Shown piece after piece: positions 48,747 to 64,000 of a stretch of DNA of 64,000 nucleotides. The notes beneath the pieces were generated by a model. The model was not told the DNA's origin and did no database searches. It was given only the letters and a program-made list of their open reading frames with translations. The translations under genes were made by a program, and so were the position numbers. Source of the DNA: Polyangiales bacterium (GTDB taxonomy: Bacteria > Myxococcota_A > Polyangia > Polyangiales > Polyangiaceae); assembly GCA_038231275.1 (NCBI GenBank), contig JBBRLQ010000012.1, positions 165,389 to 229,388 on the forward strand, given 5' to 3'. The stretch's first letter is position 1; each line of letters begins with the position of its first letter.

Positions 48747-50153
48747 ATGGAAATCGAGTTCGTCGGCGCGGCGCAGACCGTCACCGGCTCAAAGCACCTG
48801 GTCCGGACGAAGAACGCCACGGTGATGCTCGACTGCGGCCTCGTCCAGGGCCGCCGCCGCGAATCGATGGAGGCGAACAAGAACGTCGGCGTCGACGTCC
48901 CCTCCATCGACGCCGTCGTCCTCTCGCACGCGCACATCGATCACTCGGGCGGCCTGCCGTTCCTCGTAAAGAACGGCTACGACGGCCCGATTTACGCGAC
49001 GCCGGCGACGCGCGACCTCTGCGCCGCGATGCTCGCCGACGCCGCCCGCATCCAGGCCGCCGACGCGCGCTACATCAACCGCCTCATCGAAGAGGGCGAG
49101 GCCGACATGGAGCGCGTCGAACCGCTCTACGACGAGGCCGACGTCGTCCGCGTCCTCGAACGCATGGTGAGCGTCCCCTACGGCCGCCGCATCGACGTCG
49201 CGCAGGGCGTCCGCATCACCTTCCTCGACGCCGGTCACGTCCTCGGCAGCGCGATCACGGTCATCGATCTCGAGGAGGGCGGAAGGCGAAAGCGCGTCGC
49301 CTTCACCGGCGATCTCGGTCGCCGGCGCATGCCCATCTTGCGCGATCCCGAGGTCCCGACCGACGTAGACGCCCTCATCACCGAGAGCACCTACGGCGAT
49401 CGCGTCCACAAGCCGATCGAAGAGATGGACGACGAGCTGGCCGGCCTCATCAAGCGCACCTACGAGCGCGGCGGCAAGGTCGTCATCCCGAGCTTCGCCC
49501 TCGAGCGCGCGCAGGAGATCCTCTACGCGCTGCGCATGCTGAAGAGCGCCGGCAAATTCCCGAAGATGCCGGTCTACGTCGACTCGCCGCTCACCGTGAA
49601 GATCACTGACATCTTCCGCCTCCACCCGGAGTGCTTCGACACCGAGATGCGCAAGCTCATCTCCGAGGATCGCTCGCCGTTCGAGCTCGACGAGCTGAAG
49701 TACGTCTCCGACAAAGAAGAGAGCAAAGCGATCGACGCGTCCGACGAGCCGTGCGTCATCATCTCCGCGAGCGGGATGTGCGAGGCCGGGCGGATCGTCC
49801 ATCACCTGAAGGCGACGATCGAGAATCCGAAGAACACGGTCGTCATCGTCGGCTTCCAGGCGCCGCACACGCTGGGGCGACGAATCGTCGAGCGGCGGCA
49901 GCGCGTGAAGATCTTCGGCGTCGAGCGCGATCTGCGCGCGGAGGTCGCGGTACTGAACGGCTTCAGCGCGCACGCCGATCAGAAGGATCTGGTCGCGTTC
50001 GTCGAGGAGACGCGCGCGCGAGGCGGGAAGCTCACGCAGGTCGCGCTTGTGCACGGCGAGCCGCAGCCGCAGAAGGTGCTGGCCGGCCTGCTCGCCGGCA
50101 AGGGCCACGGCGACGTGCGCGCTCCTGCCGTCGGCGACGTGATGCCGCTCTGA
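48747..50153 (+). CDS. MBL-fold beta-CASP RNA-processing hydrolase
   Basis: VTGS, DCG, HAHIDH, AGHVLG, TGDLG, ESTYG, SGM, FSAHAD. Confidence 0.88.
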   Translation: MEIEFVGAAQTVTGSKHLVRTKNATVMLDCGLVQGRRRESMEANKNVGVDVPSIDAVVLSHAHIDHSGGLPFLVKNGYDGPIYATPATRDLCAAMLADAARIQAADARYINRLIEEGEADMERVEPLYDEADVVRVLERMVSVPYGRRIDVAQGVRITFLDAGHVLGSAITVIDLEEGGRRKRVAFTGDLGRRRMPILRDPEVPTDVDALITESTYGDRVHKPIEEMDDELAGLIKRTYERGGKVVIPSFALERAQEILYALRMLKSAGKFPKMPVYVDSPLTVKITDIFRLHPECFDTEMRKLISEDRSPFELDELKYVSDKEESKAIDASDEPCVIISASGMCEAGRIVHHLKATIENPKNTVVIVGFQAPHTLGRRIVERRQRVKIFGVERDLRAEVAVLNGFSAHADQKDLVAFVEETRARGGKLTQVALVHGEPQPQKVLAGLLAGKGHGDVRAPAVGDVMPL

Positions 50154-51387: not shown

Positions 51388-51535
51388 GCCATCCCACACC
51401 TAACCCGCTTTTGTTTCGGCCGCGTTTCGTGACCGTTGCGGACTCCTGGCATTTCACGCGGCCCGCTCTCCGGGTGCGTCGCTCCCGTCATTTGCCCGTT
51501 CCGTGCAAACGCCGTTCGCTCTAACGTCCGGTCCG

Positions 51536-52591
51536 ATGAGCAAGGCATTCGATCCTGGCGCCGCGGCGCCTTCGGATTCCGGGATTTTCGGGCTGCCGCA
51601 CTCCGCCGACGAGGCGCGCGTCATCGTGGTCCCCGTGCCGTTCGCGGCGACGACGTCGTACGGCGGCGGCGCGGAGAACGGCCCCGCAGCGATCCTCGAG
51701 GCGTCGCGCCAGGTGGACCTGTTCGATCGCGAGACAGGGCGGCCGTACGAGGGGGGCATCCACATGCTCCCCATCCCGGCTGACGTGCGCGCGTGGAACG
51801 ACGAGGGACGCAATCGGGCCAAAGGGGTCATCGAGGCAGGCGGTGACGTGACCGGCGATCCGGCTCTCTCGCGCGCGCTCGCGCGGGTCAACGAGCTGAG
51901 CGCCACCGTGAACGACGCCGTCTACGCGACGGTCCGCGCCGAGCTCGCGCGAAAGAAGCTCGTCGCGCTGGTCGGCGGCGATCACGCGACGCCGTTCGGA
52001 GCGATCCGCGCGCACGCCGAGGCGTTCCCTGGCCTGGGCATCCTGCACGTCGACGCGCACGCGGATCTTCGTGACGCCTACGAGGGCTTCACGCACTCGC
52101 ACGCGTCGATCATGTTCAACGTCATGCGCGGTATCCCGCAAGTCGGCCGCCTGGTGCAGGTCGGGATCCGCGATTTCTCCGAGGCCGAAGCGGCGTTCGG
52201 TGAGGCGTCGGGCGGTCGAATCGTCACGCACTACGACGCGGACCTGGTCGCGCGCGGTTTCGAAGGCGAGCCGTGGAAGACGACGGTGGACCGCATCGTC
52301 GTCGATCTGCCGAAGCAGGTGTACGTCTCGTTCGACATCGACGGGCTCGATCCGACGCTCTGCCCGCACACGGGCACGCCGGTCCCCGGAGGCCTCTCCT
52401 TCCAACAGGCGTCCGCGCTCGTAGGGGCCGTCGCGCGATCGGGCCGCACGATCGTGGGCGTCGACGTGAACGAAGTGGTTCCGGGACCCGACGGAGACGA
52501 GTGGGACGGAAACGTCGGGGCGCGCATCCTCTACAAGCTGATCGGGTGGATGCTCGTGTCGCAGGGCCTCAGCACGCCGCCGCCGCGCTGA
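51536..52591 (+). CDS. Agmatinase/ureohydrolase family protein
   Basis: GGDH, DAHAD, SFDIDGLDP, TGTPVPGG, DVNEV. Confidence 0.88.
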   Translation: MSKAFDPGAAAPSDSGIFGLPHSADEARVIVVPVPFAATTSYGGGAENGPAAILEASRQVDLFDRETGRPYEGGIHMLPIPADVRAWNDEGRNRAKGVIEAGGDVTGDPALSRALARVNELSATVNDAVYATVRAELARKKLVALVGGDHATPFGAIRAHAEAFPGLGILHVDAHADLRDAYEGFTHSHASIMFNVMRGIPQVGRLVQVGIRDFSEAEAAFGEASGGRIVTHYDADLVARGFEGEPWKTTVDRIVVDLPKQVYVSFDIDGLDPTLCPHTGTPVPGGLSFQQASALVGAVARSGRTIVGVDVNEVVPGPDGDEWDGNVGARILYKLIGWMLVSQGLSTPPPR

Positions 52592-52708
52592 CGAGATCCC
52601 TTCGGCGATCGGCGGCCGTCACCGCTTCGACCGATCGCGTGGTCAGAACCACGAGCTGGTTTCGCCACGCAACCGCGTCGGCGAATGGGATAATCTGATT
52701 CGCAGCGC

Positions 52709-54940
52709 ATGGCAGCATCGGTAACCGCAACGCGCGCGGCCGCGTTCACATCGGCTGCGATGATCGCCCATCAGGTCGCAGGGAAGGCCGCGCGCGATAC
52801 GCTGTTCCTGACGAGCTTCTCGGCGCGCGCGCTCCCCGGCGCCATGGCTGTGGCGGCGGCGCTCTCGCTCCTGGCCGCGTTCTGGATCTCGCGGTTACTC
52901 ACGCGCTACTCACCCGCTGCGGTCCTGCCAGCCCTGTTCGGCGCGAGCATATGCGGGCTCGTCGGCGAGTGGCTTCTCGGAAAGCTGTCGCCGCCGGCGA
53001 TGGCGATCGCCATCTACTTGCACCTGGCGGCGTTCGGACCGCTCCTCATCACCGCGTTCTGGTCGCTCATCAACGAACGCTTCGACCCCCACACCGCGAG
53101 GCGCGCCGTCGGGCGGATCGCGACCGGCGGAACGATCGGTGGAGTGCTCGGCGCTCTCATGGTGTGGCGGGCCGCCGCCGTCATCGACCTTTCCACGAGC
53201 GTCCTCTTGCTAGCCGCACTCCATGGAGCGTGCCTGGTCGGTACGCTGCGGCTCCGCGCGCAAGTGCCTCTTATCGAGAGCAAGGATCGCGAGTCGAATC
53301 CCGATCGACCGCGCGAGCCGGTCTCGGCGGTCGGACTGCTCCGCAGCGAGCCCTATCTGCGCAGCCTCGCGTTGCTCGTAGCGCTCGGCGCCGCGATGTC
53401 GTCGGTGCTGGACTACTTGTTCAGCTTTCAAGCCTCGGCGGCCTTCGACAAGGGAGCGCCGCTGCTCGCCTTCTTTTCGTTGTTCTGGCTGGCGGTCGCG
53501 GTTCTCTCGCTCGTCATCCAGCTGACCCTGGGCGAGCGCGCCCTCGAGAAGCTGCCGCTGACGGCGAACATCGCCATCCTGCCCGCCCTCGTCATCATGG
53601 GTGGGCTTTTCGGTCTCACGGTACCTGGGTTTTTCAGCACGTCGATTCTTCGCGGGGCGGAGGCAGTGCAGCGCAACACGCTCTACCGCTCGGCCTACGA
53701 GATGCTCTACACGCCGTTGTCGGAGCACCAGAAGCGCACGATCAAGGCGCAAATCGATATCGGCTTCGATCGTGCCGGCACGATCGCGGCTTCGGGTCTG
53801 GTCGCGCTGTTCCTCGCGGTCTTCGCGCACGATTCAGTGAGCTACCTGCTCGGTGCGGTCATGACGCTGGGTGTCTTGACGTTGCTGGTCGTGCGGAGAC
53901 TGCATGCTGGCTACGTCACGGCTCTCGAGCATGGTCTTCGGTATGGGGCGACGCACCTCGAACTGCCGTCGCTCGCCCGTCAGGTCAGCGGCAGCGCAGA
54001 GAACGCCGAATACGTCGAGCGGGAGAACCTGATGCAGCGCGTGGAGCTGCTGCGGCCCGGACATGACGCATCAACGCAGCACGCCGCCGGAGCCGAACGC
54101 ACCGCGCACGGCCCCGCGAGGACCGCGCTGCAGCACCCGAGGTCGTTGCTCGATGGTCGGGACCTGCTGGCTGGCGAGGTCGAATCGACCAGGAACGCGT
54201 TGCGCGCATTGCCACTCGAGACGACGACGCCGGTGTGGGGGTTCGTCATCTTGCTGCTGGCGCACAAGGAGCTGCATGCCGAAGCGCTCGCAGCGCTGTG
54301 CCGCGCCGCGCCCAGGATGACAGGGCAATTGGTCGACGCGCTCGTCGACCCTGCGATGGACTTCGTCGTGCGTCGCAGAATCCCCTACGCGCTCGCGGCG
54401 TGTGCCTCGCAGCGCGCCGCGGAGGGACTGCTGCTCGGCATTGGCGATGACAGGTTCGAGGTTCGCTACGCGTGTGGCCGGGCGTTGATGACGATCGCGG
54501 AAGCGAATCCGAGCATCGTCATCCCGCGCCAGAAGATTGTGCAGACGATCTTGATCGAGGTCGACCTCGAAGCTCCTGCAGCGCAAGAGTTCGAGGCCGA
54601 CCCGAGTGGGATCGAGGACGCCGGCGCGCTCGTGGACGACCTGCTCGCGCGCGATCGCGTGGACCGCACGCTAGAGCACGTGTTCACGATTCTCGCCCTG
54701 CACCTCGAGCGCGAGCCGATGCGTATGGCCTATCGCGCGCTTCGTCATCCCGATGTCCGTCATCGCGGCACGGCCCTCGAATACTTGCAGACGGTCTTGC
54801 CGCACGACATTCGCGACGCGGTGTGGCCGCTGCTCGGAGCGCTGGCCCCACTACCCGCCGCACGGGGCGCAAAAGAGATCCTCGCCGACCTGCTGCGCGC
54901 GACCGTGGTCCCGACGCCGGCGACCGGCGAGCCTCGCTAG
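52709..54940 (+). CDS. Npt1/Npt2 (TLC)-like MFS nucleotide transporter fused to HEAT repeats
   Basis: GKAARDTLFL, FWSLINERFD, ELLY.P-like motif, KAQID..FDRAG; HEAT-like C-terminus. Confidence 0.7.
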   Translation: MAASVTATRAAAFTSAAMIAHQVAGKAARDTLFLTSFSARALPGAMAVAAALSLLAAFWISRLLTRYSPAAVLPALFGASICGLVGEWLLGKLSPPAMAIAIYLHLAAFGPLLITAFWSLINERFDPHTARRAVGRIATGGTIGGVLGALMVWRAAAVIDLSTSVLLLAALHGACLVGTLRLRAQVPLIESKDRESNPDRPREPVSAVGLLRSEPYLRSLALLVALGAAMSSVLDYLFSFQASAAFDKGAPLLAFFSLFWLAVAVLSLVIQLTLGERALEKLPLTANIAILPALVIMGGLFGLTVPGFFSTSILRGAEAVQRNTLYRSAYEMLYTPLSEHQKRTIKAQIDIGFDRAGTIAASGLVALFLAVFAHDSVSYLLGAVMTLGVLTLLVVRRLHAGYVTALEHGLRYGATHLELPSLARQVSGSAENAEYVERENLMQRVELLRPGHDASTQHAAGAERTAHGPARTALQHPRSLLDGRDLLAGEVESTRNALRALPLETTTPVWGFVILLLAHKELHAEALAALCRAAPRMTGQLVDALVDPAMDFVVRRRIPYALAACASQRAAEGLLLGIGDDRFEVRYACGRALMTIAEANPSIVIPRQKIVQTILIEVDLEAPAAQEFEADPSGIEDAGALVDDLLARDRVDRTLEHVFTILALHLEREPMRMAYRALRHPDVRHRGTALEYLQTVLPHDIRDAVWPLLGALAPLPAARGAKEILADLLRATVVPTPATGEPR

Positions 54941-54965
54941 ATCTCCCGATCGGAAGCTGGCTAGC

Positions 54966-56174
54966 TCAGCGCACTTCGTCGTCCGTGCGCGGCTTCCGAC
55001 CCTCGACGGGCAATAGCACGACGAAGCGGCAGCCAAGTCCCGTGCTTGCGCTCTCGACCCGGATGGTTCCGTCATGAAGCTCGACCAAATGACGGACGAT
55101 CGCGAGGCCCGCGCCGAGCCCGCCGCCAGTGCGCGACGTCGCCGCGGTACTCCCTTCGAACCCGAACATGCTCGCGGCAAGCCCGGGCTCGATTCCCGGG
55201 CCGGTGTCCGTTACCGCGAGCTCGACCTCGGCGCCGACGTTGCTCAGCGAAACCGTGACTACGCCCTCGGTGGGGGTGGCGGTCAGCGCGTTGCTGACGA
55301 GCTGGTGCACGATCTGGCGCAGACGCTCCGCATCCCCGGACATTGGAACGATGTCGCGCTCGAGCGCCGCGAACAGCGTCACCTGCTTCGCGACCGCGAG
55401 CGGACGGTTCGCCTCGACCACCAGGTTGGTGACCTGCACGAGGTCCACGGTCCCGAGCTCCAGCGTGAGCTGGCCGCTCTTCATCCGGCTGATGTCGATC
55501 ATCTCCTCGATGAGTGCGAGCTGCGAAACCGCGTGGCGCTCGACCGTCTCGAGCGCACGGGCGCGTTGTGCCTCGCCGATCGATCCATCGCGCAGCATGC
55601 GGACCCACCCGACGATGGCGTTGAGCGGAGGCCGAAGCTCCTTCCCGAGTGTCGAGAGGAACTGCTGCTGCAGCCGGTCTGCCTGGACGAGGCTCGCGGC
55701 GAGACGCTCGGCCTCGCCGCGAGCTCTATGCTCGTGACTCCGCACTTGCTGTTGTGTCTGGTAGAGGTCGACGAAGACTGCCACCTTTGCGCGCAGGATC
55801 GTGGGATCGGGGGGCCGTGAGAGGAGGTCCACCGCTCCGCTCGCGTACGCCCGCGCGACGCGTGCGGTCTCCTGCTCCGCCGAGGTGAGCAAGATGATCG
55901 GGACACGCCGCGCCCCATCGAGCGCCTCGATGTTCGCTGCGGTCTCGAGGCCGTCCATCGCGCCCCGCAGCTCGAGGGAGAGCAGGATCAGCGCGAAGCG
56001 GTGGGCCGAGACTTCGCGGAGCGCCTCGGATCCTGAGCTGACCGCGACGAGCTCCTGGTCCGGTGACGCGAGGATGGTTTGTAGTGCGACGAGGTTCGCG
56101 CGGTGGTCGTCGACGAGCAGGAGCCTCACCTTCGCCGAATCGGCGCCACCTGCCTCGAGGACGCCGCAGCTCAT
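54966..56174 (-). CDS. REC-HisKA-HATPase hybrid with degenerate phosphoacceptors
   Basis: LLVDD REC start; H-box reads LGKELRPPL; HATPase NAL, DTGPGI, GLGAGLAIV; ATG at 56174. Confidence 0.8.
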   Translation of the reverse strand: MSCGVLEAGGADSAKVRLLLVDDHRANLVALQTILASPDQELVAVSSGSEALREVSAHRFALILLSLELRGAMDGLETAANIEALDGARRVPIILLTSAEQETARVARAYASGAVDLLSRPPDPTILRAKVAVFVDLYQTQQQVRSHEHRARGEAERLAASLVQADRLQQQFLSTLGKELRPPLNAIVGWVRMLRDGSIGEAQRARALETVERHAVSQLALIEEMIDISRMKSGQLTLELGTVDLVQVTNLVVEANRPLAVAKQVTLFAALERDIVPMSGDAERLRQIVHQLVSNALTATPTEGVVTVSLSNVGAEVELAVTDTGPGIEPGLAASMFGFEGSTAATSRTGGGLGAGLAIVRHLVELHDGTIRVESASTGLGCRFVVLLPVEGRKPRTDDEVR

Positions 56175-56295
56175 CTGGCGCAAGCCTACCCTACCCCGCG
56201 CGGCGAGTGTGACTCGCCGGGGACGCCCGTGAGGATGAGCGCTACCTTGCCGCAGTGCGCCCGCGCGAGTCGATCGGGCGTATGATCGTTGATCC

Positions 56296-59217
56296 ATGCC
56301 GGTGAACGACGCGTTTGATTTCGCCGGCGACCAGGCCGCCGAGGCGCTGCTGAACACCGGCGCGTTGCAGAGTGCGATCTTCAACAGCGCGAACTTTTCG
56401 AGCATCGCCACCGACGCGAAGGGCGTCATCCAGATCTTCAACGTCGGAGCCGAACGGATGCTGGGCTTCACGGCGGACGAGGTCGTGAACAAGATCACGC
56501 CGGCCGATATCTCCGATCCCGCGGAGTTGATCGCGCGCGCCAAGACGCTCAGTGTCGAGCTCGGGACGCCGATCACGCCGGGGTTCGAAGCCCTGGTGTT
56601 CAAGGCGTCGCGCGGGATCGAAGACATCTACGAGCTGACGTACATCCGCAAGGACAAGAGCCGGTTGCCGGCGGTGGTGTCGGTCACCGCGCTGCGCGAC
56701 GCGAAGGACGCGATCATCGGGTACCTGCTTATCGGCACGGACAACACCGCGCGCAAGCATGCGGAAGCCGCGCTGCAGCAGGCGGGTGCGCTGCAGAGTG
56801 CGATTTTGAACAGCGCCAACTTCTCGAGCATCGCCACCGACGCAAAGGGCGTGATCCAGATCTTCAACATCGGCGCCGAGCGCATGCTGGGCTACGCCGC
56901 GGCGGACGTGATCAACAAGGTCACGCCGGCGGACATCTCGGATCCGGAAGAATTGATCGCGCGCGCCACGGCGCTCAGTGCCGAGCGCGGGACGTCGATT
57001 GCGCCAGGATTCGAAGCGCTGGTGTTCAAGGCGTCGCGCGGCATCGAGGACATCTATGAGCTGACCTACATCCGAAAGGATGGCAGTCGGCTCCCGGCGG
57101 TCGTGTCCGTCACGGCACTCCGCGATGCCAAGGGCGCGATCATCGGTTATCTGCTCATCGGGACCGACAACACGGCGCGCCAGCAAGTCGAAGAGGAACG
57201 CGCGAAGCTCGATCAGAGGCTCCGCGACCACCACTTCTACACACGCTCGCTGATCGAATCCAACATCGACGCCATCATGACGACCGATCCGCGCGGCATC
57301 ATCACGGACGTCAACAAGCAGACAGAGGCGTTGACCGGCTGCACGCGGGACGAGCTGATCGGCGCTCCTTTCAAGAATTACTTCACCGATCCGAGTCGCG
57401 CCGAGGCGGGGATCAACCGGGTGCTCGCGGGGGGCAAGATCACGAACTACGAGCTCACTGCGCGTGCGAGGGATGGCACTCTCACGGTCGTCTCCTACAA
57501 CGCGACGACGTTCCACGATCGTGACCGCAGACTGCAGGGCGTGTTCACTGCGGCGCGCGACGTGACCGCGCTGAAGAGTTACGAGCGCACGCTGAAGCAG
57601 AAGAATGTCGAGCTGGAGGACGCCAACCGGATGAAGTCCGAGTTCCTCGCCAACATGTCCCACGAGCTGAGGACCCCGCTCAACGCCATCATCGGATTCT
57701 CCGAGGTGTTGAAGGACGGCATGATGGGCGAATTGACTGCACAACAGCAGCGCTTCATCACGGACATCTTCAGCAGTGGCAGCCACCTGCTGTCCTTGAT
57801 CAACGACATCCTCGACCTCTCCAAGGTGGAGGCGGGCAAGATGATGCTCGATCTGGAGTCCGTCCAGATCTCCTCGCTGTTCGTGAACAGCTTGTCGATC
57901 ATCCGCGAGAAGGCGGCGACGCGTAACATCCGTCTCCTGGTCGACGACGCCGACGCGGGAGGCTTGATCTTCGCGGACGCCCGCAAGGTGAAGCAGATCG
58001 TCTACAACCTGCTGTCGAACGCGGTCAGATTCAGTAACGAGGGAGGCGAAGTCACGCTGCGTGCTGCGCGCGTCTCTCGCGCCGACGTTGGAAAGCTGTC
58101 TGGGATCGGAGCGGGCCGCAGTCTGCCGTTGCCGGACGGCACCTTCGAAGAGTTTCTCGAGATCAGCATCACCGATCAGGGCATCGGCATCTCGGCGGAG
58201 GGCATCGAGCAGCTGTTCAAGCCGTTCAGTCAGATCGACAGCGGGCTGTCCCGCAAATTCGAGGGCACTGGGCTGGGTCTGGCCATGATCAAGCTGCTGG
58301 CGGAGCTGCACGGCGGGTCTGTTGCGGTCGAGAGTGTGGTCGGGAAGGGCTCGTGCTTCACGGTGTGGTTGCCGGTTCGCGCGCCCGATGCACCCGCCGG
58401 CGTTACGCCATCCGCTCCGCAGGCCCTCGCGTACGACACAGCACGCCCGGGAGCCCCGACCGCGCTGGTCGTGGAGGACGACCTCAAGTCGGCGGAGCTT
58501 ATCCGCCTGCAACTCGAGGCCCACGGCTTCCACGTGGTACATGCAGAATCCGCTGAGATCGCGCTCTCGCTGGTCACGATGCAGCGGGTGGAGCTGATCA
58601 CGCTCGACATCATGCTGCCCAACATGGACGGGTGGGAGTTCCTCGCTCGCCTCAAGAACATTCCTGAGCTCGGAAAAATTCCTGTCGTGATCATCTCGAT
58701 CGTAGCCGACCGCAACAAGGGCTTCGCGCTCGGCGCCGCCGCGGTCATGGAGAAGCCGATGTCACGGCAGGAGCTCTACGAGTCGCTCGTCGCCCTCGGG
58801 CTGTTTCCGGTCGCACAGGGCAACACACTCAAGGTACTCATCGTCGATGACGATCCCAAGGCGGTGGAGCTCGTCGCGGTCAGGTTCACCGGCCTGGCAA
58901 GTACGATCGTGCGGGCGTACGGGGGTGCCGAAGCGATCGAAATCGCTACCACCCAGCGGCCAGACTTGATCGTGCTCGACCTGATGATGCCCGAGGTGAA
59001 TGGTTTTGACGTGGTCGAAGCGCTCCGCGCCCACGTCGAGACTGCAAAGATCCCAATCCTCGTCATGACCGCAAAGCAGGTCACTGCGGAGGACCGAATC
59101 CGGCTCGTCCGGGGAGAAACAATGCTCGTGGAAAAGGGCGACCTCGACAGGGACCGCTTCATGTCCGAGGTCGGGCGCGCGATGTCAGGCCGTGCACCGG
59201 TGGTTCGCCGTGGCTAA
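56296..59217 (+). CDS. Hybrid sensor kinase PAS-PAS-PAS-HisKA-HATPase-REC-REC
   Basis: SHELRTPL, NLLSNA, DQGIGI, GTGLGL; two REC domains with Asp. Confidence 0.92.
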   Translation: MPVNDAFDFAGDQAAEALLNTGALQSAIFNSANFSSIATDAKGVIQIFNVGAERMLGFTADEVVNKITPADISDPAELIARAKTLSVELGTPITPGFEALVFKASRGIEDIYELTYIRKDKSRLPAVVSVTALRDAKDAIIGYLLIGTDNTARKHAEAALQQAGALQSAILNSANFSSIATDAKGVIQIFNIGAERMLGYAAADVINKVTPADISDPEELIARATALSAERGTSIAPGFEALVFKASRGIEDIYELTYIRKDGSRLPAVVSVTALRDAKGAIIGYLLIGTDNTARQQVEEERAKLDQRLRDHHFYTRSLIESNIDAIMTTDPRGIITDVNKQTEALTGCTRDELIGAPFKNYFTDPSRAEAGINRVLAGGKITNYELTARARDGTLTVVSYNATTFHDRDRRLQGVFTAARDVTALKSYERTLKQKNVELEDANRMKSEFLANMSHELRTPLNAIIGFSEVLKDGMMGELTAQQQRFITDIFSSGSHLLSLINDILDLSKVEAGKMMLDLESVQISSLFVNSLSIIREKAATRNIRLLVDDADAGGLIFADARKVKQIVYNLLSNAVRFSNEGGEVTLRAARVSRADVGKLSGIGAGRSLPLPDGTFEEFLEISITDQGIGISAEGIEQLFKPFSQIDSGLSRKFEGTGLGLAMIKLLAELHGGSVAVESVVGKGSCFTVWLPVRAPDAPAGVTPSAPQALAYDTARPGAPTALVVEDDLKSAELIRLQLEAHGFHVVHAESAEIALSLVTMQRVELITLDIMLPNMDGWEFLARLKNIPELGKIPVVIISIVADRNKGFALGAAAVMEKPMSRQELYESLVALGLFPVAQGNTLKVLIVDDDPKAVELVAVRFTGLASTIVRAYGGAEAIEIATTQRPDLIVLDLMMPEVNGFDVVEALRAHVETAKIPILVMTAKQVTAEDRIRLVRGETMLVEKGDLDRDRFMSEVGRAMSGRAPVVRRG

Positions 59218-59578
59218 AATTCTGGTCATCGAAGACAACCCCGCCAACATGACGCTGGCGACATTCCTACTGCAGTCGGTCAACCACACTGTGCTGTGCG
59301 CTACCGACGCAGAGACCGGGCTGACGCTGGCGCGTGCCGAGACCCCAGACCTCATCCTCATGGACATCCAGCTCCCGGGGATGGACGGACTCGCCGCGAC
59401 GAAGATCCTCAAGGAGGACCCGGTGACGCGCGCCATCCCTGTGATCGCGCTGACCGCGCTGGCGATGAAGGGTGACGAGGAGCGAATTCGGGCCGCCGGG
59501 TGCGACGGATACATCGCAAAGCCGATGCGCTACAAACTATTCCTCCAAACGATCGCCGATCAGCTCGCGCGCATTTGA
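59210..59578 (+). CDS. Single-domain response regulator (DivK/CheY-like)
   Basis: VIEDN, MDIQLPGMDG, ALTA, YIAKP; GTG at 59210 overlaps kinase end. Confidence 0.9.
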   Translation: MAKILVIEDNPANMTLATFLLQSVNHTVLCATDAETGLTLARAETPDLILMDIQLPGMDGLAATKILKEDPVTRAIPVIALTALAMKGDEERIRAAGCDGYIAKPMRYKLFLQTIADQLARI

Positions 59579-59580
59579 AG

Positions 59581-59604
59581 TGGAGCGAAGCGCAGCGGAG
59601 CGAA
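59581..59604 (+). repeat. Short dispersed intergenic repeat, copy 2
   Basis: Matches 23737-23760 (minus strand). Confidence 0.6.
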
Positions 59605-59758
59605 ACGACTCCTGACGGAGAGGCCTGACCGGCTTTTTCAAGTGCAGCCCAGATCGCCTCGACGTTGCCGGTTAGGCGTGGGTGAACGTCATAGCGCGGC
59701 CGGGGCTGCAAACGGACGCCGCACGCGCGCGTCATCGTAGTCCCGGTCCCGTTCGTGA

Positions 59759-60685
59759 CTACGACGGGGGCGCCCTCTCGATGATGCGCACGCGCGGGAC
59801 GCCCACCGGCACAAGCGCGAGCGCGGCGTCGCGGTAGCCGGTCGCGCGCGTAGGATCAGCGACCGCGTCGAGCTCGGGCGCGATCTCGACGATGTCGCCG
59901 GGCTCGAGGCGCGCCTCCGCGGACTCGTCGAACGGGATCGGTCCGAGCGGCTCCCCTTCGAACGACTGCGTGTCGACCTGCGCGAGCCACGTCTCCGCGC
60001 TCGGCCGATCGGCGCGCGCGAATCGCTCGCGGTCCCCCTCTAAGTGAAGGCGCCCCGGGGGGACGCGCACGACGCGCCCGTCGTCGAGCGTCACGTCGAA
60101 GCCGCAGGTGCGGGCCTCGCGGAGCATCACGTGGCGCGCGAGCATGCGGAGGTGCGTGAGCTCGGCGCGGTAGGCAAGGCACGACTCGTTCGAGATGGGC
60201 GCGACGAGCTCGGGGGCGCCGCTCACGGCGCCGCGCAGCCCGGCGCCCGCAGCAGGTGGGGTCGGCAGGGCCAGCGCGGCCCCGGTCGCGCGCGGTTCCT
60301 TCATCTTGCGCTGGATGAACTGGGCGATGACCTTGATGAGGAAGTAGAGCGCCACCGCGGCGATGGCCGCGACGATCATCACCGCGATCACCGCGAGGAT
60401 CTCCCCTCCCCCGCCGCCGGAGGGCACGTCGCACCCTCCGCATCCGCCGCAATCGAGCGCCTGCCCCGCGCCGCCGACCCCCGCACCGGTGCCGCCCGCG
60501 CGCGCGATTTCCTTGGCCTTGAGCTCCGCCCCTTCGCCCCAGACGGCGCGCACCAGCGAACGCCGCCCTTTCTGGTTCCCGACGTCGACGACCTTGTGGC
60601 CCTGCCCGCCGTCGCATTCCTCGCCCGCGGCGAAGAGAGACCGGCAGCCCAAACACATGCGGGTTCGTACGGGAAGAGCGAGCAC
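59759..60685 (-). CDS. Membrane protein of unknown function with CxxC motifs
   Basis: CLGC, CGGCGGC, one TM segment; start 60685 or 60658. Confidence 0.6.
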   Translation of the reverse strand: MLALPVRTRMCLGCRSLFAAGEECDGGQGHKVVDVGNQKGRRSLVRAVWGEGAELKAKEIARAGGTGAGVGGAGQALDCGGCGGCDVPSGGGGGEILAVIAVMIVAAIAAVALYFLIKVIAQFIQRKMKEPRATGAALALPTPPAAGAGLRGAVSGAPELVAPISNESCLAYRAELTHLRMLARHVMLREARTCGFDVTLDDGRVVRVPPGRLHLEGDRERFARADRPSAETWLAQVDTQSFEGEPLGPIPFDESAEARLEPGDIVEIAPELDAVADPTRATGYRDAALALVPVGVPRVRIIERAPPS

Positions 60686-60818: not shown

Positions 60819-60876
60819 TGAATGACGAGGCGCGCTTGTGCGTCCAAACGAGCGACCACCAACTCAACCAATCGCC

Positions 60877-61044
60877 ATGTTCACCCTCCCCACAACCCGC
60901 ATTTTCTCCAAGACCAGCGCCTGGCGGGTGGGGTTCTTGGGATGCGTCCAGGGTCATGGCGAATGCATTTCCGCGCGGCTCCCCGGTTATCTCTGTCTGG
61001 CCGGCAATACGTTCCCGCTCGATTCGATGAAGGCAGGCCCCTAG
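60877..61044 (+). CDS. Candidate leader peptide (55 aa)
   Basis: ATG 60877 to TAG 61044, followed by a terminator-like hairpin; no recognisable family. Confidence 0.3.
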   Translation: MFTLPTTRIFSKTSAWRVGFLGCVQGHGECISARLPGYLCLAGNTFPLDSMKAGP

Positions 61045-61077
61045 GTGGCTCTCTAGACGTCCCTTTTCAGGACCTCT

Positions 61078-61120
61078 CGAAGGCCGCCCGGGTACCCCCC
61101 GAGGCGGCCTTTCGGCATTT
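61078..61120 (+). terminator. Terminator-like GC-rich hairpin
   Basis: CGAAGGCCGCC...GGCGGCCTTTCG followed by GCATTT. Confidence 0.5.
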
Positions 61121-61160
61121 CAGGATCCCGACGCGAAGCTGAGGGACCCCTCTGAGCTCT

Positions 61161-61247
61161 CCGACTCCGACCCCGACTCCGACTCCGACTCCGACCCCGA
61201 CCCCGACTCCGACCCCGACTCCGACCCCGACCCCGACTCCGACTCCC
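61161..61247. repeat. Non-coding (CCGACY)n hexamer array
   Basis: About 14 tandem units; Pro-Thr frame preceded by a stop at 61140-61142. Confidence 0.85.
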
Positions 61248-61379
61248 GTCCCCCACACGACCCCCCGGGTCACGCGCGCCAAGCCCGTTCGACCAGGCAG
61301 AAGGAGGCTGACTTCAAATGACAAAAACAAACGTGAAAGATGGCCTCCGTTCGACCATCTCAATCACTCGACAAGCCGC

Positions 61380-61452
61380 GGGACGTTGGCTCAATCGGTA
61401 GAGCACCGGGCTTTTAACCCGTGGCATGAGGGTTCGAGTCCCTTGCGTCCCA
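61380..61452 (+). tRNA. tRNA-Lys(TTT)
   Basis: Cloverleaf; loop CTTTTAA; T-loop TTCGAGT. Confidence 0.85.
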
Positions 61453-61474
61453 CCCGCGGATCTCCGATCCGGTC

Positions 61475-61546
61475 GGGTCTGTAGCGTAACGGCAGCGCAC
61501 CCGGCTCTTAACCGGTGAAGCGAGGGTTCGAATCCCTCCAGACCCA
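61475..61546 (+). tRNA. tRNA-Lys(CTT)
   Basis: GGGTCTG/CAGACCC acceptor; loop CTCTTAA. Confidence 0.88.
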
Positions 61547-61572
61547 CTACGCCTCGCGCTGCGAGGCGTCAT

Positions 61573-61645
61573 GGGTCAGGAGTGCTGCGGACAGTCGCGC
61601 GCGCCGACGGCGCTTGCTCCGTAGTTTCGAATCCCTCCAGACCCA
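61573..61645 (+). pseudogene. tRNA-sized degenerate element sharing the 3' end of tRNA-Lys(CTT)
   Basis: GGGTCAG...TTCGAATCCCTCCAGACCCA; no D or anticodon arm. Confidence 0.5.
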
Positions 61646-61686
61646 CAACGCCTCGCCCCGCCCCGGGTGGGCGTGAGACTTCAGAT

Positions 61687-61761
61687 GCCGGGGTCGTCTA
61701 GTGGCGAAGACATTGGGCCCTGACCCCAAGAACGCAGGTTCGACTCCTGTCCCCGGATCCA
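61687..61761 (+). tRNA. tRNA-Gln(CTG)
   Basis: Cloverleaf; loop CCCTGAC; encoded CCA. Confidence 0.85.
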
Positions 61762-61840
61762 TGCGCGGCCCCTGGCCGACGCGAAGACGTACTCGTCTGC
61801 CCGCGCGCTCGATTTCGAGCGCGTGCGCGCGGACACCTTG

Positions 61841-61853
61841 TCCCTTGAAAACT
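61841..61853 (+). promoter_or_regulatory. boxA-like antitermination motif TCCCTTGAAAACT
   Basis: Resembles rrn leader boxA (TCTTTGAAAAC type); preceded by hairpin 61803-61824. Confidence 0.4.
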
Positions 61854-61863
61854 TGGCACCAAC

Positions 61864-61911
61864 GACGGCGGGGCTTCGGTGCCCCCGAGGCCTCGCCGTC
61901 TTTTTTTTTTT
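61864..61911 (+). terminator. Intrinsic terminator inside the tRNA array
   Basis: GACGGCGGGGCTTCGG/CCGAGGCCTCGCCGTC stem followed by T11. Confidence 0.8.
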
Positions 61912-61916
61912 ACGTT

Positions 61917-61987
61917 GCCCTCGCAGCTCGAAGGTCGAGCCCTCGTTTCGTAATCGAGAGGGTCCGGTTCGATTCCGGACGGGGGCT
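61917..61987 (+). tRNA. tRNA-Thr(CGT)
   Basis: Cloverleaf; loop TTCGTAA. Confidence 0.8.
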
Positions 61988-62005
61988 CCGCGCGTTCGCA
62001 CGCTG

Positions 62006-62081
62006 GCCCTCGTCGTCTAGAGGTTCAGGACCCCCGCCTTTCAAGCGGGCAAGACGGGTTCGAGTCCCGTCGAGGGCACCA
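62006..62081 (+). tRNA. tRNA-Glu(TTC)
   Basis: Canonical cloverleaf; loop CTTTCAA; CCA. Confidence 0.92.
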
Positions 62082-62091
62082 GCAACGTCGC

Positions 62092-62164
62092 GGGCTGTGA
62101 GCTAGTCGAGTGATAGCGTCCGCCTGAAGAGCGGAAGAACGTGGTGCGACTCCACGACAGCCCA
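62092..62164 (+). tRNA. tRNA-Phe(GAA)
   Basis: Loop CTGAAGA; T-loop TGCGACT. Confidence 0.8.
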
Positions 62165-62176
62165 CTCTTGTTTTTC

Positions 62177-62314
62177 TCTCGACGCACGCTGGACCATGCT
62201 GCTCGGCCCTGCGAGGCCCTACACGCAAGGATGGTCCCAAAAACCATCGGCTTCGAATGCCGAAACTACGGCTTCGCCACTCGGGCGGCATGGTCCAGCG
62301 TCTGTCGGTCGAGA
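62177..62314 (+). ncRNA. Candidate structured ncRNA with a tRNA-like domain
   Basis: 20-bp closing helix 62186-62205/62282-62301 plus 7-bp outer helix, enclosing hairpins that include a TTCGAAT T-arm. Confidence 0.55.
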
Positions 62315-62315
62315 T

Positions 62316-62387
62316 GCCTCGTGATGCGACCGGCGTCGCAGCTCCACTGTCCATGGAGTGAGACGGGTTCGACTCCCGTACGGGGCG
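62316..62387 (+). tRNA. tRNA-Asp(GTC)
   Basis: Loop CTGTCCA; G73. Confidence 0.82.
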
Positions 62388-62401
62388 CAGCGCGTTTTTC
62401 T

Positions 62402-62472
62402 GGGCCGTAGAGTCATGGAGACCGGCCGAGCCTCCAAAACTCGGAGAGAGGGTTCGATTCCCTCACGGCCCG
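62402..62472 (+). tRNA. tRNA-Trp(CCA)
   Basis: Loop CTCCAAA; G73; short D-arm. Confidence 0.75.
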
Positions 62473-62495
62473 CTGGGCGTCTTTTTGCAACGCGC

Positions 62496-62568
62496 GGGGT
62501 CGAAGCTCAACGAGGAGAGCGCCTGGTCGGCAGCCAGGAGGGTACCGGTGCAAATCCGGTCGACTCCA
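62496..62568 (+). tRNA. tRNA-Ala(GGC)
   Basis: G3.U70; loop TCGGCAG; T-loop TGCAAAT. Confidence 0.82.
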
Positions 62569-62590
62569 CCGCCGCGTCACGCGGCATCGT

Positions 62591-62661
62591 GCGGACATCG
62601 TCCAACAGTAGGGCCTCAGTCTTCCAAACTGACGATGCGGGTGCGACTCCCGCTGTCCGCT
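62591..62661 (+). tRNA. tRNA-Gly(TCC)
   Basis: Loop CTTCCAA; U73; T-loop TGCGACT. Confidence 0.85.
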
Positions 62662-62666
62662 CTCAT

Positions 62667-62740
62667 GGGGCGATAGCTCAATAGGAGAGTACTCCCCTCG
62701 CACGGGATGGATCGGGGTGCAATTCCCCGTCGCTCCACCA
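62667..62740 (+). tRNA. tRNA-Ala(CGC)
   Basis: G3.U70; loop CTCGCAC; CCA. Confidence 0.85.
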
Positions 62741-62741
62741 T

Positions 62742-62810
62742 GAGCCGATTCTCTGACGAGGAGCGCAGTCTGCAAAACCGCGCGCGAGGGTTTGATTCCT
62801 TCTCGGTTCT
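62742..62810 (+). tRNA. tRNA-Cys(GCA)
   Basis: Loop CTGCAAA; U73; short D-arm, T-loop TTTGATT. Confidence 0.7.
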
Positions 62811-62817
62811 CCGCGAT

Positions 62818-62889
62818 GCCTCCGTCGCTCAATGGAAGGGCCGCCGACTTCTAATCGGTTTCATGCAGGTTCGAGTCCTGCCGGGGGTG
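62818..62889 (+). tRNA. tRNA-Arg(TCT)
   Basis: Cloverleaf; loop CTTCTAA. Confidence 0.87.
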
Positions 62890-62894
62890 CTCAC

Positions 62895-62966
62895 GGAGGC
62901 GTAGCTCAGTGGCAGAGCAGTGGCCTGTTAGACCAACGCGCGCAGGTTCGACCCCTGCCGCCTCCG
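62895..62966 (+). tRNA. tRNA-Asn(GTT), weak anticodon stem
   Basis: Good acceptor, D and T arms; loop CTGTTAG; only 3 bp in anticodon stem. Confidence 0.65.
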
Positions 62967-62984
62967 CAAATTTTCTTCGCGCAG

Positions 62985-63058
62985 CCTTTCGTCGTGGCGG
63001 ATCCACGCACGGGTCTACGAAACCCGTTGTCCAGGTTCGACTCCTGGCGGAAGGACCA
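62985..63058 (+). tRNA. tRNA-Arg(ACG)
   Basis: Loop CTACGAA; CCA; short D-loop. Confidence 0.8.
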
Positions 63059-63059
63059 C

Positions 63060-63137
63060 GTCCCCGTCGTCTAGCTGGCCAAGGACCCCGGCCTCTCACG
63101 TCGGAAACGCGGGGTTCGACTCCCCCCGGGGACACCA
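63060..63137 (+). tRNA. tRNA-Glu(CTC)
   Basis: Loop CTCTCAC; CCA. Confidence 0.87.
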
Positions 63138-63143
63138 TCACCT

Positions 63144-63215
63144 GCCCTTGTCCTGCCGGATGCAGGCGCTCGCGTCCGAAGCGAGACGGGCGAGGTTCGA
63201 CTCCTCGCAAGGGCA
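63144..63215 (+). tRNA. tRNA-Arg(CCG)
   Basis: Loop GTCCGAA; perfect acceptor and T stems. Confidence 0.78.
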
Positions 63216-63221
63216 CGATTC

Positions 63222-63294
63222 GCCGTCTAGGCCCAGAGAGCGGGGCCCCTCACTGGTAACGAGGAGATGGAGGGTGCGAGTCCCTCAGACGGCT
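63222..63294 (+). tRNA. tRNA-Thr(GGT)
   Basis: Loop CTGGTAA; T-loop TGCGAGT. Confidence 0.78.
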
Positions 63295-63310
63295 CCGACA
63301 GGTTCATTTC

Positions 63311-63381
63311 GCGGCCATGGTTCAACAGCAGAATGCGAGAGTGCCAATCTCGCGATCCGGGTGCGACTCCCGGTGGCCGCT
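63311..63381 (+). tRNA. tRNA-Gly(GCC)
   Basis: Loop GTGCCAA; U73; T-loop TGCGACT. Confidence 0.82.
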
Positions 63382-63382
63382 C

Positions 63383-63455
63383 CGCGGGGTGGAGTAGAAG
63401 TAAACTCACTTGGCTCATAACCAAGAGACCGCGTGTGCAAATCACGCCCCCGCAA
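63383..63455 (+). tRNA. tRNA-Met(CAT), initiator-like
   Basis: CGCGGGG start with C1.A72 mismatch; loop CTCATAA. Confidence 0.82.
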
Positions 63456-63461
63456 CCGCAT

Positions 63462-63530
63462 CGCTGTGATCCTGGGAGGAAGGCGGGCCTCATAAGCCCG
63501 GCCGAGGTGGTCCGACTCCACCCGCAGCGA
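63462..63530 (+). tRNA. tRNA with CAT anticodon (Met or Ile2), reduced D-arm
   Basis: CGCTGTG/CGCAGCG acceptor; CGGGC-CTCATAA-GCCCG; T-loop TCCGACT. Confidence 0.65.
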
Positions 63531-63536
63531 CGATGC

Positions 63537-63608
63537 TCCGGAGTCGTCCAGCGGCAAGGACACGCGGCTTTGAACCGCCGAACGAGGGTTCGAGTCCCTC
63601 CTCCGGTA
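63537..63608 (+). tRNA. tRNA-Gln(TTG)
   Basis: Loop CTTTGAA; 1-72 mismatch. Confidence 0.83.
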
Positions 63609-63624
63609 CTTGGGTGCACGACTC

Positions 63625-63697
63625 GCGGAGCTCGTCGTCTGGTGATGGCACCTGTTTCACACGCAGGCCCAGGAGAGTTCGATCCTCTCGCTCCGCA
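63625..63697 (+). tRNA. tRNA-Val(CAC)
   Basis: Loop TTCACAC; A73. Confidence 0.78.
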
Positions 63698-63705
63698 CTG
63701 GCCTC

Positions 63706-63781
63706 GGGTCATGACGGGATGGTTGCCCTGAGCTCTCTGATACGGAGCTCGCGCTGCGTTCGATTCGCAGATGACCCACCA
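63706..63781 (+). tRNA. tRNA-Ile(GAT)
   Basis: Loop CTGATAC; extended anticodon stem; CCA. Confidence 0.78.
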
Positions 63782-63804
63782 CACGAAGCGAAAGAAGAAA
63801 CTCT

Positions 63805-63860
63805 CTGGGCGTAGCTTAGCCTGGCAAAAGCGCCGCGTTCGGGACGCGGAGACCGCAGGT
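63805..63860 (+). pseudogene. 5' part of tRNA-Pro(CGG), interrupted at the T-arm
   Basis: Acceptor 5' strand, D-arm, CCGCG-TTCGGGA-CGCGG and GCAGG present; 3' T-stem and acceptor strand absent. Confidence 0.75.
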
Positions 63861-64000
63861 GCGCGCGTCGCCGGATGCCGATCGGACAAAACGGCGCATC
63901 GCGATCACACAAAACGGCGGATGCCGATCGCACAAAACGGCGCATCGCGATCACCCCCTGAGGTGACGCGCTCCCGGGGTCTCGCGCCCACACCGCCTAA
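63860..64000. mobile_element. Probable end of an IS21-family insertion sequence
   Basis: Starts TG; 23-bp tandem units at 63872, 63895, 63918 and 63941 (GATGCCGATC/CATCGCGATC...ACAAAACGG); no transposase inside the window. Confidence 0.5.

Follow-up and report, generated by a model that had tools for sequence, protein, structure and literature searches.

The 64,000-nucleotide stretch of the Polyangiales bacterium genome GCA_038231275.1 analysed here (G000, contig C12, positions 165389 to 229388) ends in a dense cluster of tRNA genes. It is called the window below, and unlabelled coordinates are positions within it. The assembly is 9.28 Mb in 164 contigs, with a completeness of 94%. The locus is almost certainly a chromosomal long tRNA gene array (an L-array, or tRNA array unit) that comprises about 31 genes and the HNH gene characteristic of that class. 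Taken as a whole, the favoured reading is that this L-array is an accessory set of tRNA genes that is maintained and serves as a second tRNA pool, used conditionally; a probability of roughly 0.68 is given to this reading.

A total of 24 complete tRNA genes, all on the + strand, were identified between 61380 and 63781 using ARAGORN and Rfam, followed by one interrupted gene. At its default settings ARAGORN identifies 20 of the 24, and its relaxed threshold adds four: Ala(GGC) at 62496-62570, Ala(CGC) at 62667-62740, Thr(GGT) at 63222-63296 and a second CAT gene at 63457-63531. Four further relaxed-threshold calls on the minus strand overlap + strand genes and were disregarded. In an independent check with Rfam RF00005, 18 of the 24 reach at least 29 bits, and three of the four relaxed additions are among these (Ala(GGC) at 62496-62568, Ala(CGC) at 62667-62737 and Thr(GGT) at 63222-63294). 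Chance can be set aside, as 2.4 kb contain 24 tRNA genes here and the remaining 9.3 Mb contain 43. The widest spacer among the genes of the window is 155 nt and the order of anticodons has no repeating unit. With Pro counted, 16 amino acids are covered in the window, where there is no Leu, Ser, Tyr or His gene. The number of genes and the amino acids covered are as given in the initial annotation of the window, which had also drawn attention to encoded CCA ends and to readers of A-ending codons. The six CCA-encoding genes are there (Gln CTG, Glu TTC, Ala CGC, Arg ACG, Glu CTC and Ile GAT), but only 10 of 43 housekeeping tRNAs encode CCA, so its scarcity does not set the array apart. The A-ending-codon readers TTT, TTC, TCT, TTG and TCC are likewise present without being specific to the array, as all five also occur in the housekeeping set. 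Elsewhere in the window, ARAGORN reports a 98-nt 'tRNA-Gly(ACC)' at 33754-33851 on the minus strand, of odd length and anticodon and probably a false call.

The array continues beyond the window. The last base of the window is the end of contig C12, and its final 141 bases (63860..64000, +) recur with 98-100% identity at the ends of contigs C33, C37, C72 and C13. They belong to a multi-copy insertion sequence (IS) with TG...CA termini and form its left end; in the contigs of the metagenome run that best covers this DNA, depth is 56-123 over the IS end and 8-10 over the array. The right end of the IS is at C27:1-141, with an inverted-repeat match to the left end at 31 of 41 positions. On C27 a second copy of the hexamer CGCAGG follows the IS end, and from C27:148 the T-arm and acceptor half of a tRNA-Pro. 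The 5' 55 nt of this gene, cut in the T arm, are in the window (63805..63859, +; partial RF00005 match at 63809-63866, 21.2 bits), and when the halves are joined with one copy of CGCAGG, ARAGORN at default settings finds a 77-nt tRNA-Pro(CGG) starting at 63805. The matching IS end, the duplicated hexamer and the missing half on C27 therefore identify the interrupted tRNA-Pro as the product of a recent IS insertion with a 6-bp target duplication, beyond which the array resumes on C27. The contigs of the best-covering run carry the array without differences and extend 30 nt into the IS; no IS-free joint of the array is among them. The body of the IS is not in the G000 assembly. A related end on contig C3 did not help to assign the IS to a family, as no transposase follows that end. 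The first ORF (open reading frame) of the IS has a helix-turn-helix-like N terminus, and its 47-residue start gives a weak IS21 hint (15.7 bits) and no PHROG match.

On C27 the Pro half is followed by Val(GAC), Leu(CAG), Leu(GAG), the HNH gene (C27:519-1025), Ser(CGA), Ser(GCT) and Tyr(GTA), bringing the array to about 31 genes and 19 amino acids. A look downstream for the isotypes missing from the window had been recommended, and Leu, Ser and Tyr are indeed found there; no His gene was found in the window or the C27 part of the array. Several of the 'Leu' genes, at C27:275-352 and in sister arrays, are only 73-78 nt and, unlike standard bacterial tRNA-Leu, have no long variable arm. Short 'Leu' genes of this kind are also present in the Anabaena array.

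The protein encoded by the HNH gene of the array matches Pfam HNH_5 (E 5.8e-15) and also Pfam HNH. In a tblastn comparison it is 40.2% identical (E 3e-20) to the product of the HNH gene on plasmid delta of Nostoc/Anabaena PCC 7120 (pCC7120delta), which sits directly upstream of 24 ARAGORN tRNA genes. L-arrays have been described as long, non-periodic and supernumerary and as having an HNH gene for a conserved neighbour (Santamaria-Gomez et al. 2021, PMC8421152), and a tRNA array unit has been defined as at least 20 tRNA genes at a density of at least 2 per kb (Tran et al. 2016, PMC4758250). The locus has 24 genes in 2.4 kb in the window and about 31 with C27. Its genes are co-oriented, close together and non-periodic, with a hairpin at 61864-61911 and the IS as caveats. 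They are supernumerary, with only CCA and GAT confined to the array and the usual loci of these two unassembled, and a homologous HNH gene lies among them. On these structural grounds the locus belongs to the already published L-array class. The link between HNH and arrays is not universal, as there is no tRNA gene within 6 kb of the homologue on Acaryochloris marina pREB6. A second HNH paralogue in G000, 37% identical, is at C1:504086-504631 and has no credible tRNA gene beside it.

The array is an accessory set of tRNAs whose anticodons are already represented in the host. Outside it, 43 RF00005 matches are scattered over the assembly at 53-77 bits (median 65.1), compared with 29-68 bits (median 52.8) for the 23 matching array genes. 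Apart from CCA and GAT, every anticodon of the array is also found outside it. Array genes are 0.52 to 0.76 identical to the housekeeping gene with the same anticodon (mean 0.64). Mean identity to the best same-anticodon gene of other chromosomal arrays is 0.80, and is the higher of the two in 25 of 25 comparable genes, although this is a best-of-several comparison that favours the larger set, the other arrays. The auxiliary, non-housekeeping nature first proposed for these genes is thus borne out. Judged by sequence, the array tRNAs are a lineage separate from the housekeeping tRNAs of the host and common to other Polyangiaceae arrays, including those of Sorangium, and to the arrays on phage contigs.

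The altered loops and arms noted at first are real when counted against the genome's other tRNAs. Positions 8, 33 and 55 were read by simple register from ARAGORN coordinates, so that single genes may be misregistered, and the counts were made on genes with at least 6 acceptor pairs and at least 4 T-stem pairs (290 of 311 kept). C33 is found in 5 of 29 parsed genes of the array (Gln CTG, Ala GGC, Val GAC, Ser GCT and Tyr GTA, two of them in the window), in 39 of 290 genes in all chromosomal arrays sampled and in none of the 46 other tRNAs of the host. The corresponding figures for G55 are 7 of 28, 30 of 290 and 0 of 46, and for absence of U8 they are 9 of 28, 95 of 290 and 2 of 46. Among 175 genes of viral arrays, 15 have C33, 53 have no U8 and one has G55. 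G55 is accompanied by loss of the D-loop GG in 22 of 30 genes, while U55 is accompanied by GG in 251 of 257, and some array tRNAs have an A18/G55-type elbow. Literature searches for the C33 and A18/G55 tRNA core found no description of it.

Perfect acceptor stems (7/7 pairs) are present in 25 of 29 array genes, G3:U70 is kept in both Ala genes and the discriminator base is mostly that of the host isoacceptor. The cloverleaf is kept in eight Val(GAC) orthologues of widely diverged arrays, with a double compensatory change at 20 of 24 pairs, and C33 of Val(GAC) is kept in 7 of 8 arrays. This co-variation of the stems indicates that the genes are maintained. The array genes are real and their cloverleaf is maintained by compensatory change across the sister arrays.

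The array is chromosomal and probably inherited within the Polyangiaceae, with relatives in phages. In the congener G001, the first six array genes are present at 91-97% identity at a contig end, and they adjoin the same PrsW, beta-CASP and Amt genes that stand 10-14 kb to the left of the array in G000. The distance from Amt to the array is about 10 kb in G000 (51503-60685) and about 1.9 kb in G001. In G000 this interval contains an arginase-family gene, an MFS gene, two hybrid histidine kinases, an orphan 308-residue ORF and a response regulator with a single domain, and GC is 0.635-0.647 at 56-60 kb. The two-component and transport genes of the interval, about 10 kb in all, are lacking in G001. 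The beta-CASP/RMMBL metallo-beta-lactamase gene at 48747-50153 is of an RNA-metabolising nuclease type; its place near the array, beside PrsW and Amt in both genomes, may be plain synteny of close relatives.

Twelve of the 21 loci examined have 11-38 co-oriented tRNA genes, and the blocks Lys-Lys-Gln(CTG)-Asn-Thr-Glu-Phe and Leu-Leu-HNH-Ser are common to the sister arrays. The 80 closest genomic relatives of the HNH gene are mostly from metagenome Polyangiaceae or Polyangiales, together with 16 complete Sorangium chromosomes (58-62% identity). At least nine co-oriented tRNA genes lie within 4 kb of HNH in 40 of these 80 and in 27 of the closest 36. The cultured Sorangium strains have shorter blocks, with 9-13 tRNA genes within 4 kb of HNH. 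A DNA search of 40 relatives confirmed arrays in only five, which, like the related arrays on viral contigs, speaks for horizontal transfer; the locus shared with G001, the arrays of the 16 Sorangium chromosomes and an HNH identity that declines with taxonomic distance speak for vertical descent. Across the phylum, an HNH relative at E 1e-10 or better is present in 202 of 401 genomes. In one family (f9, L023-L043), 17 of 29 scanned loci have an HNH orthologue with 52-56% identity next to a lone tRNA-Arg(CCT). Either the link between HNH and tRNA genes may persist without an array, or the lone gene may be the last remnant of one.

A TROVE/Ro60 gene lies inside three sister arrays, in G015, G007 and G034 (L013 417-2246; L014 11089-12843; L016 13550-15516). 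In two of the three, a YrlA-like RNA adjoins Ro60, scoring 57.5 and 53.9 bits where the Rfam gathering score is 69. In G000, neither the sister-array protein nor the Pfam model finds a TROVE match, and YrlA is represented only by a 36.7-bit partial match off the array, of a kind also present in 9 of 14 control genomes. The only rtcB of G000 is on contig C18, unlinked to the array. Of the three genes for which a downstream inspection had been advised, HNH is present on C27, TROVE was not found in this genome but is present in sister arrays, and rtcB is not linked.

The proposed function is that of a reserve pool, and by analogy with known arrays we give it about an even chance. Work on the Anabaena trn operon and on phages suggests that the array would normally be poorly expressed. 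It would supply a second chargeable tRNA pool when the normal pool, or translation itself, is compromised by antibiotics, tRNA-cutting toxins or phage attack. With its odd core (C33, no U8, G55 and an altered D loop), this pool may be a poorer substrate for the enzymes that act on standard tRNAs. The HNH protein might either help the array to spread or rearrange by cutting DNA at tRNA genes, or be retained as a linked partner. Induction of this array by stress would follow the precedent of the Anabaena trn operon, from which this part of the proposal is drawn. If the idea of a reserve pool is true, such arrays would be a general protection of translation against attack on tRNAs. The homologous blocks in cultured Sorangium make the question testable in a tractable organism.

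Several observations weigh against a maintained and conditionally used pool. The IS destroys one gene and cuts seven downstream genes off from any upstream promoter, and a strong terminator-like hairpin stands after the third gene (61864-61911); these two interruptions suggest that the array is not one intact operon, at least in this strain. Among the 22 runs listed for the array DNA there is no RNA run. At E 0.01, RF00005 misses eight of the 31 array genes (Asp, Val CAC, Ile, Arg CCG, the second CAT, both Ser and the split Pro), and the T loop of the C27 copy of Ser(CGA) is degenerate. Identity of the HNH protein tracks taxonomy, at 68% in the family, about 55% in the order and about 45% in the phylum, and this fall with distance is more in keeping with a resident gene than with active homing. 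The presence of C33 and the lack of U8 could be merely tolerated, GC-driven drift under weak selection. In addition, cleavage by the K. lactis gamma-toxin is reported to be unaffected by a U33-to-C change (PMC2275089).

Some of these features would also be expected if the array were a decaying relic, acquired once, perhaps from a phage, then disused and drifting to pseudogenes, with its odd nucleotides representing damage. The lower covariance scores and failed matches would fit such decay, as would the Lys-derived pseudogene, the degenerate Ser(CGA) T loop, the IS in tRNA-Pro and the varying gene content of sister arrays; U-to-C change at conserved U positions is what drift would produce in a 69% GC genome. 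We nevertheless consider a relic unlikely. Double compensatory stem changes are found across arrays that are only 60-85% identical, most acceptor stems pair perfectly, and G3:U70 and other identity elements are preserved. The changes at G55 and in the D loop are coordinated, which drift does not yield, and C33 of Val(GAC) is kept while the adjoining stem varies. Furthermore, one locus has been retained in two species of the genus, and arrays are present in 16 complete Sorangium genomes.

The HNH family is also encoded at 31 viral-contig loci, with up to 61% identity, and 5 of the 14 scanned have at least 13 tRNA genes. Three viral arrays begin with Tyr-Lys(TTT)-Lys(CTT), with Gln(CTG) directly next in two. 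One viral locus adjoins a large terminase gene, one has an RtcB gene and four have a tmRNA gene. By gene order and HNH, the family to which the array belongs is thus tied to arrays on large phage contigs. The tmRNA genes, with ANDNA... tags, are in or beside the viral arrays L069, L070, L071 and L075, and it is L070 that also has RtcB; the tag of the tmRNA of G000 itself also begins with ANDNA.

With viral relatives of similar gene order, one beside a terminase gene and one with RtcB and tmRNA, the array might be cargo of a resident prophage, integrative element or plasmid, serving that element by codon supply or as counter-defence against host tRNases. The GC of the last 8 kb is 0.635-0.66, compared to 0.68-0.72 for most of the window, and mycobacterial array units have been called a putative anti-defence system (PMC12803027). 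Around this copy, however, integrase, terminase, capsid, relaxase and replication domains are absent from 10 ORFs on the left (about 14 kb) and 12 on the right (about 16 kb). The left flank had been described as free of phage and integrase genes, and this holds for the 10 ORFs scanned there, at 47.5-61.1 kb. The neighbours are ordinary metabolic and signalling genes, and the only mobile DNA is the IS inside tRNA-Pro. The array has the same chromosomal locus in the congener G001, and in a genome of this kind a lower GC content is expected of tRNA genes than of coding DNA. A role as cargo is thus very improbable.

The housekeeping gene for Trp tRNA is usually near secE and that for Ile(GAT) is usually inside the rRNA operon; neither secE nor a 16S rRNA gene is in the assembly. 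That the array represents the housekeeping tRNA genes of the organism is extremely unlikely, since 43 canonical and higher-scoring tRNAs elsewhere cover every other array anticodon, and the confinement of the only Trp(CCA) and Ile(GAT) genes to the array is explained by the unassembled loci of a 94% complete genome.

A wider interpretation of the maintained accessory pool is speculative and, as a complete account, rather unlikely. It would see the array as one branch of an old tRNA lineage, shared with phages and kept in Polyangiaceae chromosomes, whose core (C33, G55 with the D-loop change, no U8) has been selected so that the pool is invisible to the enzymes that recognise, modify or cleave standard tRNAs. 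The array, its HNH gene and the Ro60 and YrlA of the sister arrays would then form a system for rescue of the tRNA pool amid toxins and phages.

The array is preceded by a leader (61305..61379, +) with an AT-rich block, a candidate promoter region, which is kept in the congener G001 (BLAST 78% identity over 82 nt). A scan for the sigma-70 consensus gave 0 sites in both array parts, in the window and on C27. Imperfect hexamer repeats (CCGACT/CCGACC) are present just upstream of the array at 61145-61250, outside the GC3-supported ORFs, and metagenome contigs stack on them in thousands, as expected for low-complexity sequence. The 308-residue ORF at 59759-60685 and the 106-residue ORF at 60822-61142 were considered as regulators and rejected, having no Pfam family and no homologue beside other arrays.

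The array had initially been credited with its own regulatory RNAs, and this is not supported by the three long spacers, which prove to be a Lys-derived pseudogene, a terminator-like hairpin and a unique element without an Rfam family. The first, of 139 nt (61548-61686), is wholly lacking from the G001 array, where the matches skip query positions 170-304. It contains a tRNA-shaped pseudogene (61573..61646, +; boundaries read by eye, no ARAGORN or Rfam call), the 3' part of which duplicates the T arm and acceptor end of Lys(CTT) as an internal repeat of 30/31 nt. The second (61762-61916) is 86.5% identical in G001 and has a fold z-score of -6.3. It ends, just before Thr(CGT), in the intrinsic-terminator-like hairpin (61864..61911, +), which has 12 G-C pairs among its 16 and a T run after it. 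The third is a structured 150-nt spacer (62166..62315, +; fold -78.3 kcal/mol, z-score -7.8), in which a stem of about 21 pairs closes a branched interior with a T-loop-like hairpin. It occupies the place where the sister array of G007 has His-His-Ro60. Its sole match in Rfam is at chance level (mir-995, 12.2 bits, E 9.9) and no second copy was found in G000 or in the fetched loci. It was rejected as a Y RNA, as there is no YrlA match even with 181 nt searched and the alignment with the sister YrlA-like RNAs is unconvincing.

The individual genes of the window, all on the + strand, are given here with their RF00005 scores; all were called by ARAGORN, at the settings stated above. The array begins with Lys(TTT) (61380..61454; 61.7 bits), which has an acceptor stem of 7/7 pairs, and Lys(CTT) (61475..61547; 67.6 bits). 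After the pseudogene comes Gln(CTG) (61687..61761; 48.6 bits), with C33 and an encoded CCA. Beyond the hairpin are Thr(CGT) (61917..61989; 42.7 bits) with no U8, Glu(TTC) (62006..62081; 59 bits) with an encoded CCA and Phe(GAA) (62092..62165; 48.9 bits), where the T loop TGCGACT contains G55. The structured spacer is followed by Asp(GTC) (62316..62388), which has no U8, falls below the RF00005 threshold and matches the tRNA-Sec model only (31.6 bits), although its acceptor stem has 7/7 pairs and its discriminator is G as in the housekeeping copy. Next are Trp(CCA) (62402..62473; 31.6 bits) and Ala(GGC) (55 bits), the latter with G3:U70, C33 and G55. Gly(TCC) (62591..62662; 57 bits) has G55 and a D loop without GG, and Ala(CGC) (56.1 bits) has G3:U70, G55 and an encoded CCA. 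Cys(GCA) (62742..62812; 29.2 bits) is only 71 nt long, with the T loop TTTGATT. Arg(TCT) (62818..62890; 52.8 bits) and Asn(GTT) (62895..62967; 55.7 bits) precede two genes with an encoded CCA, Arg(ACG) (62985..63058; 32.1 bits) and Glu(CTC) (63060..63137; 42.6 bits).

Arg(CCG) (63144..63216) has no Rfam match, is called by ARAGORN at default settings and has an acceptor stem of 7/7 pairs. Thr(GGT) (43.4 bits) has G55 and no U8, and Gly(GCC) (63311..63383; 54.5 bits) has G55 and a D loop without GG. The first CAT gene (63383..63457; 57.9 bits) has G55 and a C1/A72 mismatch like that of the housekeeping initiator on C39. The second is weak, with an acceptor stem of 5/7 pairs, an odd D arm, a fold z-score of -1.7 and no Rfam match, and is called at the relaxed threshold only. 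Gln(TTG) (63537..63609; 53.2 bits) is followed by Val(CAC) (63625..63698), which is below the RF00005 threshold and matches the tRNA-Sec model only (25.8 bits), and by Ile(GAT) (63706..63781), with an encoded CCA, no U8 and no Rfam match.

A literature search on tRNA arrays in myxobacteria found no paper joining both topics. The main text of Tran et al. (2016, PMC4758250) makes no mention of myxobacteria or Deltaproteobacteria, and among the myxobacteria listed in the dataset of PMC8421152 no array exceeds 9 genes. HNH-linked arrays of 20-38 genes can now be placed in the chromosomes of uncultured Polyangiaceae and related myxobacteria.

Four known systems invite comparison. As in the arrays of large phages (van den Berg et al. 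2023, PMC10264068), of which the viral contigs share the HNH family and the Tyr-Lys-Lys-Gln order, C33 and loss of U8 are frequent here, and to about the same degree; altered anticodon loops are proposed in that paper to protect phage tRNAs from host nucleases. In contrast, G55 is nearly absent from the viral arrays (1 of 175, against 7 of 28 here), and there are no phage genes around this copy. The Ro60 (Rsr)-YrlA modules described by Chen et al. (2014, PMC4201824) have counterparts in the sister arrays, three with Ro60 and two of these with a YrlA-like RNA, and none in G000; TROVE genes are reported from archaeal tRNA clusters as well (PMC6333295). In the array units of Mycobacterium no gene is reported to be more widespread than HNH (Morgado and Vicente 2018, PMC5966550), and these units resemble this array in the accompanying HNH and in having related arrays common to phages and cellular replicons. 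Relatives of the HNH gene are also present on Mycobacterium and Mycolicibacterium plasmids. The mycobacterial units belong to another phylum, however, and the XRE regulator, release-factor-domain gene and plasmid backbone are not present in the flanking ORFs here.

The Anabaena trn operon (HNH all8564) similarly has more than 20 co-oriented, tightly packed, non-periodic and supernumerary tRNA genes, some of them degenerate-looking copies, with the HNH homologue alongside. It is carried by a cyanobacterial plasmid and has HNH upstream, whereas the present array is in a myxobacterial chromosome with HNH inside it, is split by an IS and has an internal terminator-like hairpin. The Anabaena array is also the only long tRNA array for which function has so far been shown, and the only one of the two in which induction and charging under translational stress have been demonstrated, with 23 of its 26 tRNAs reported as detected and charged (PMC8421152).

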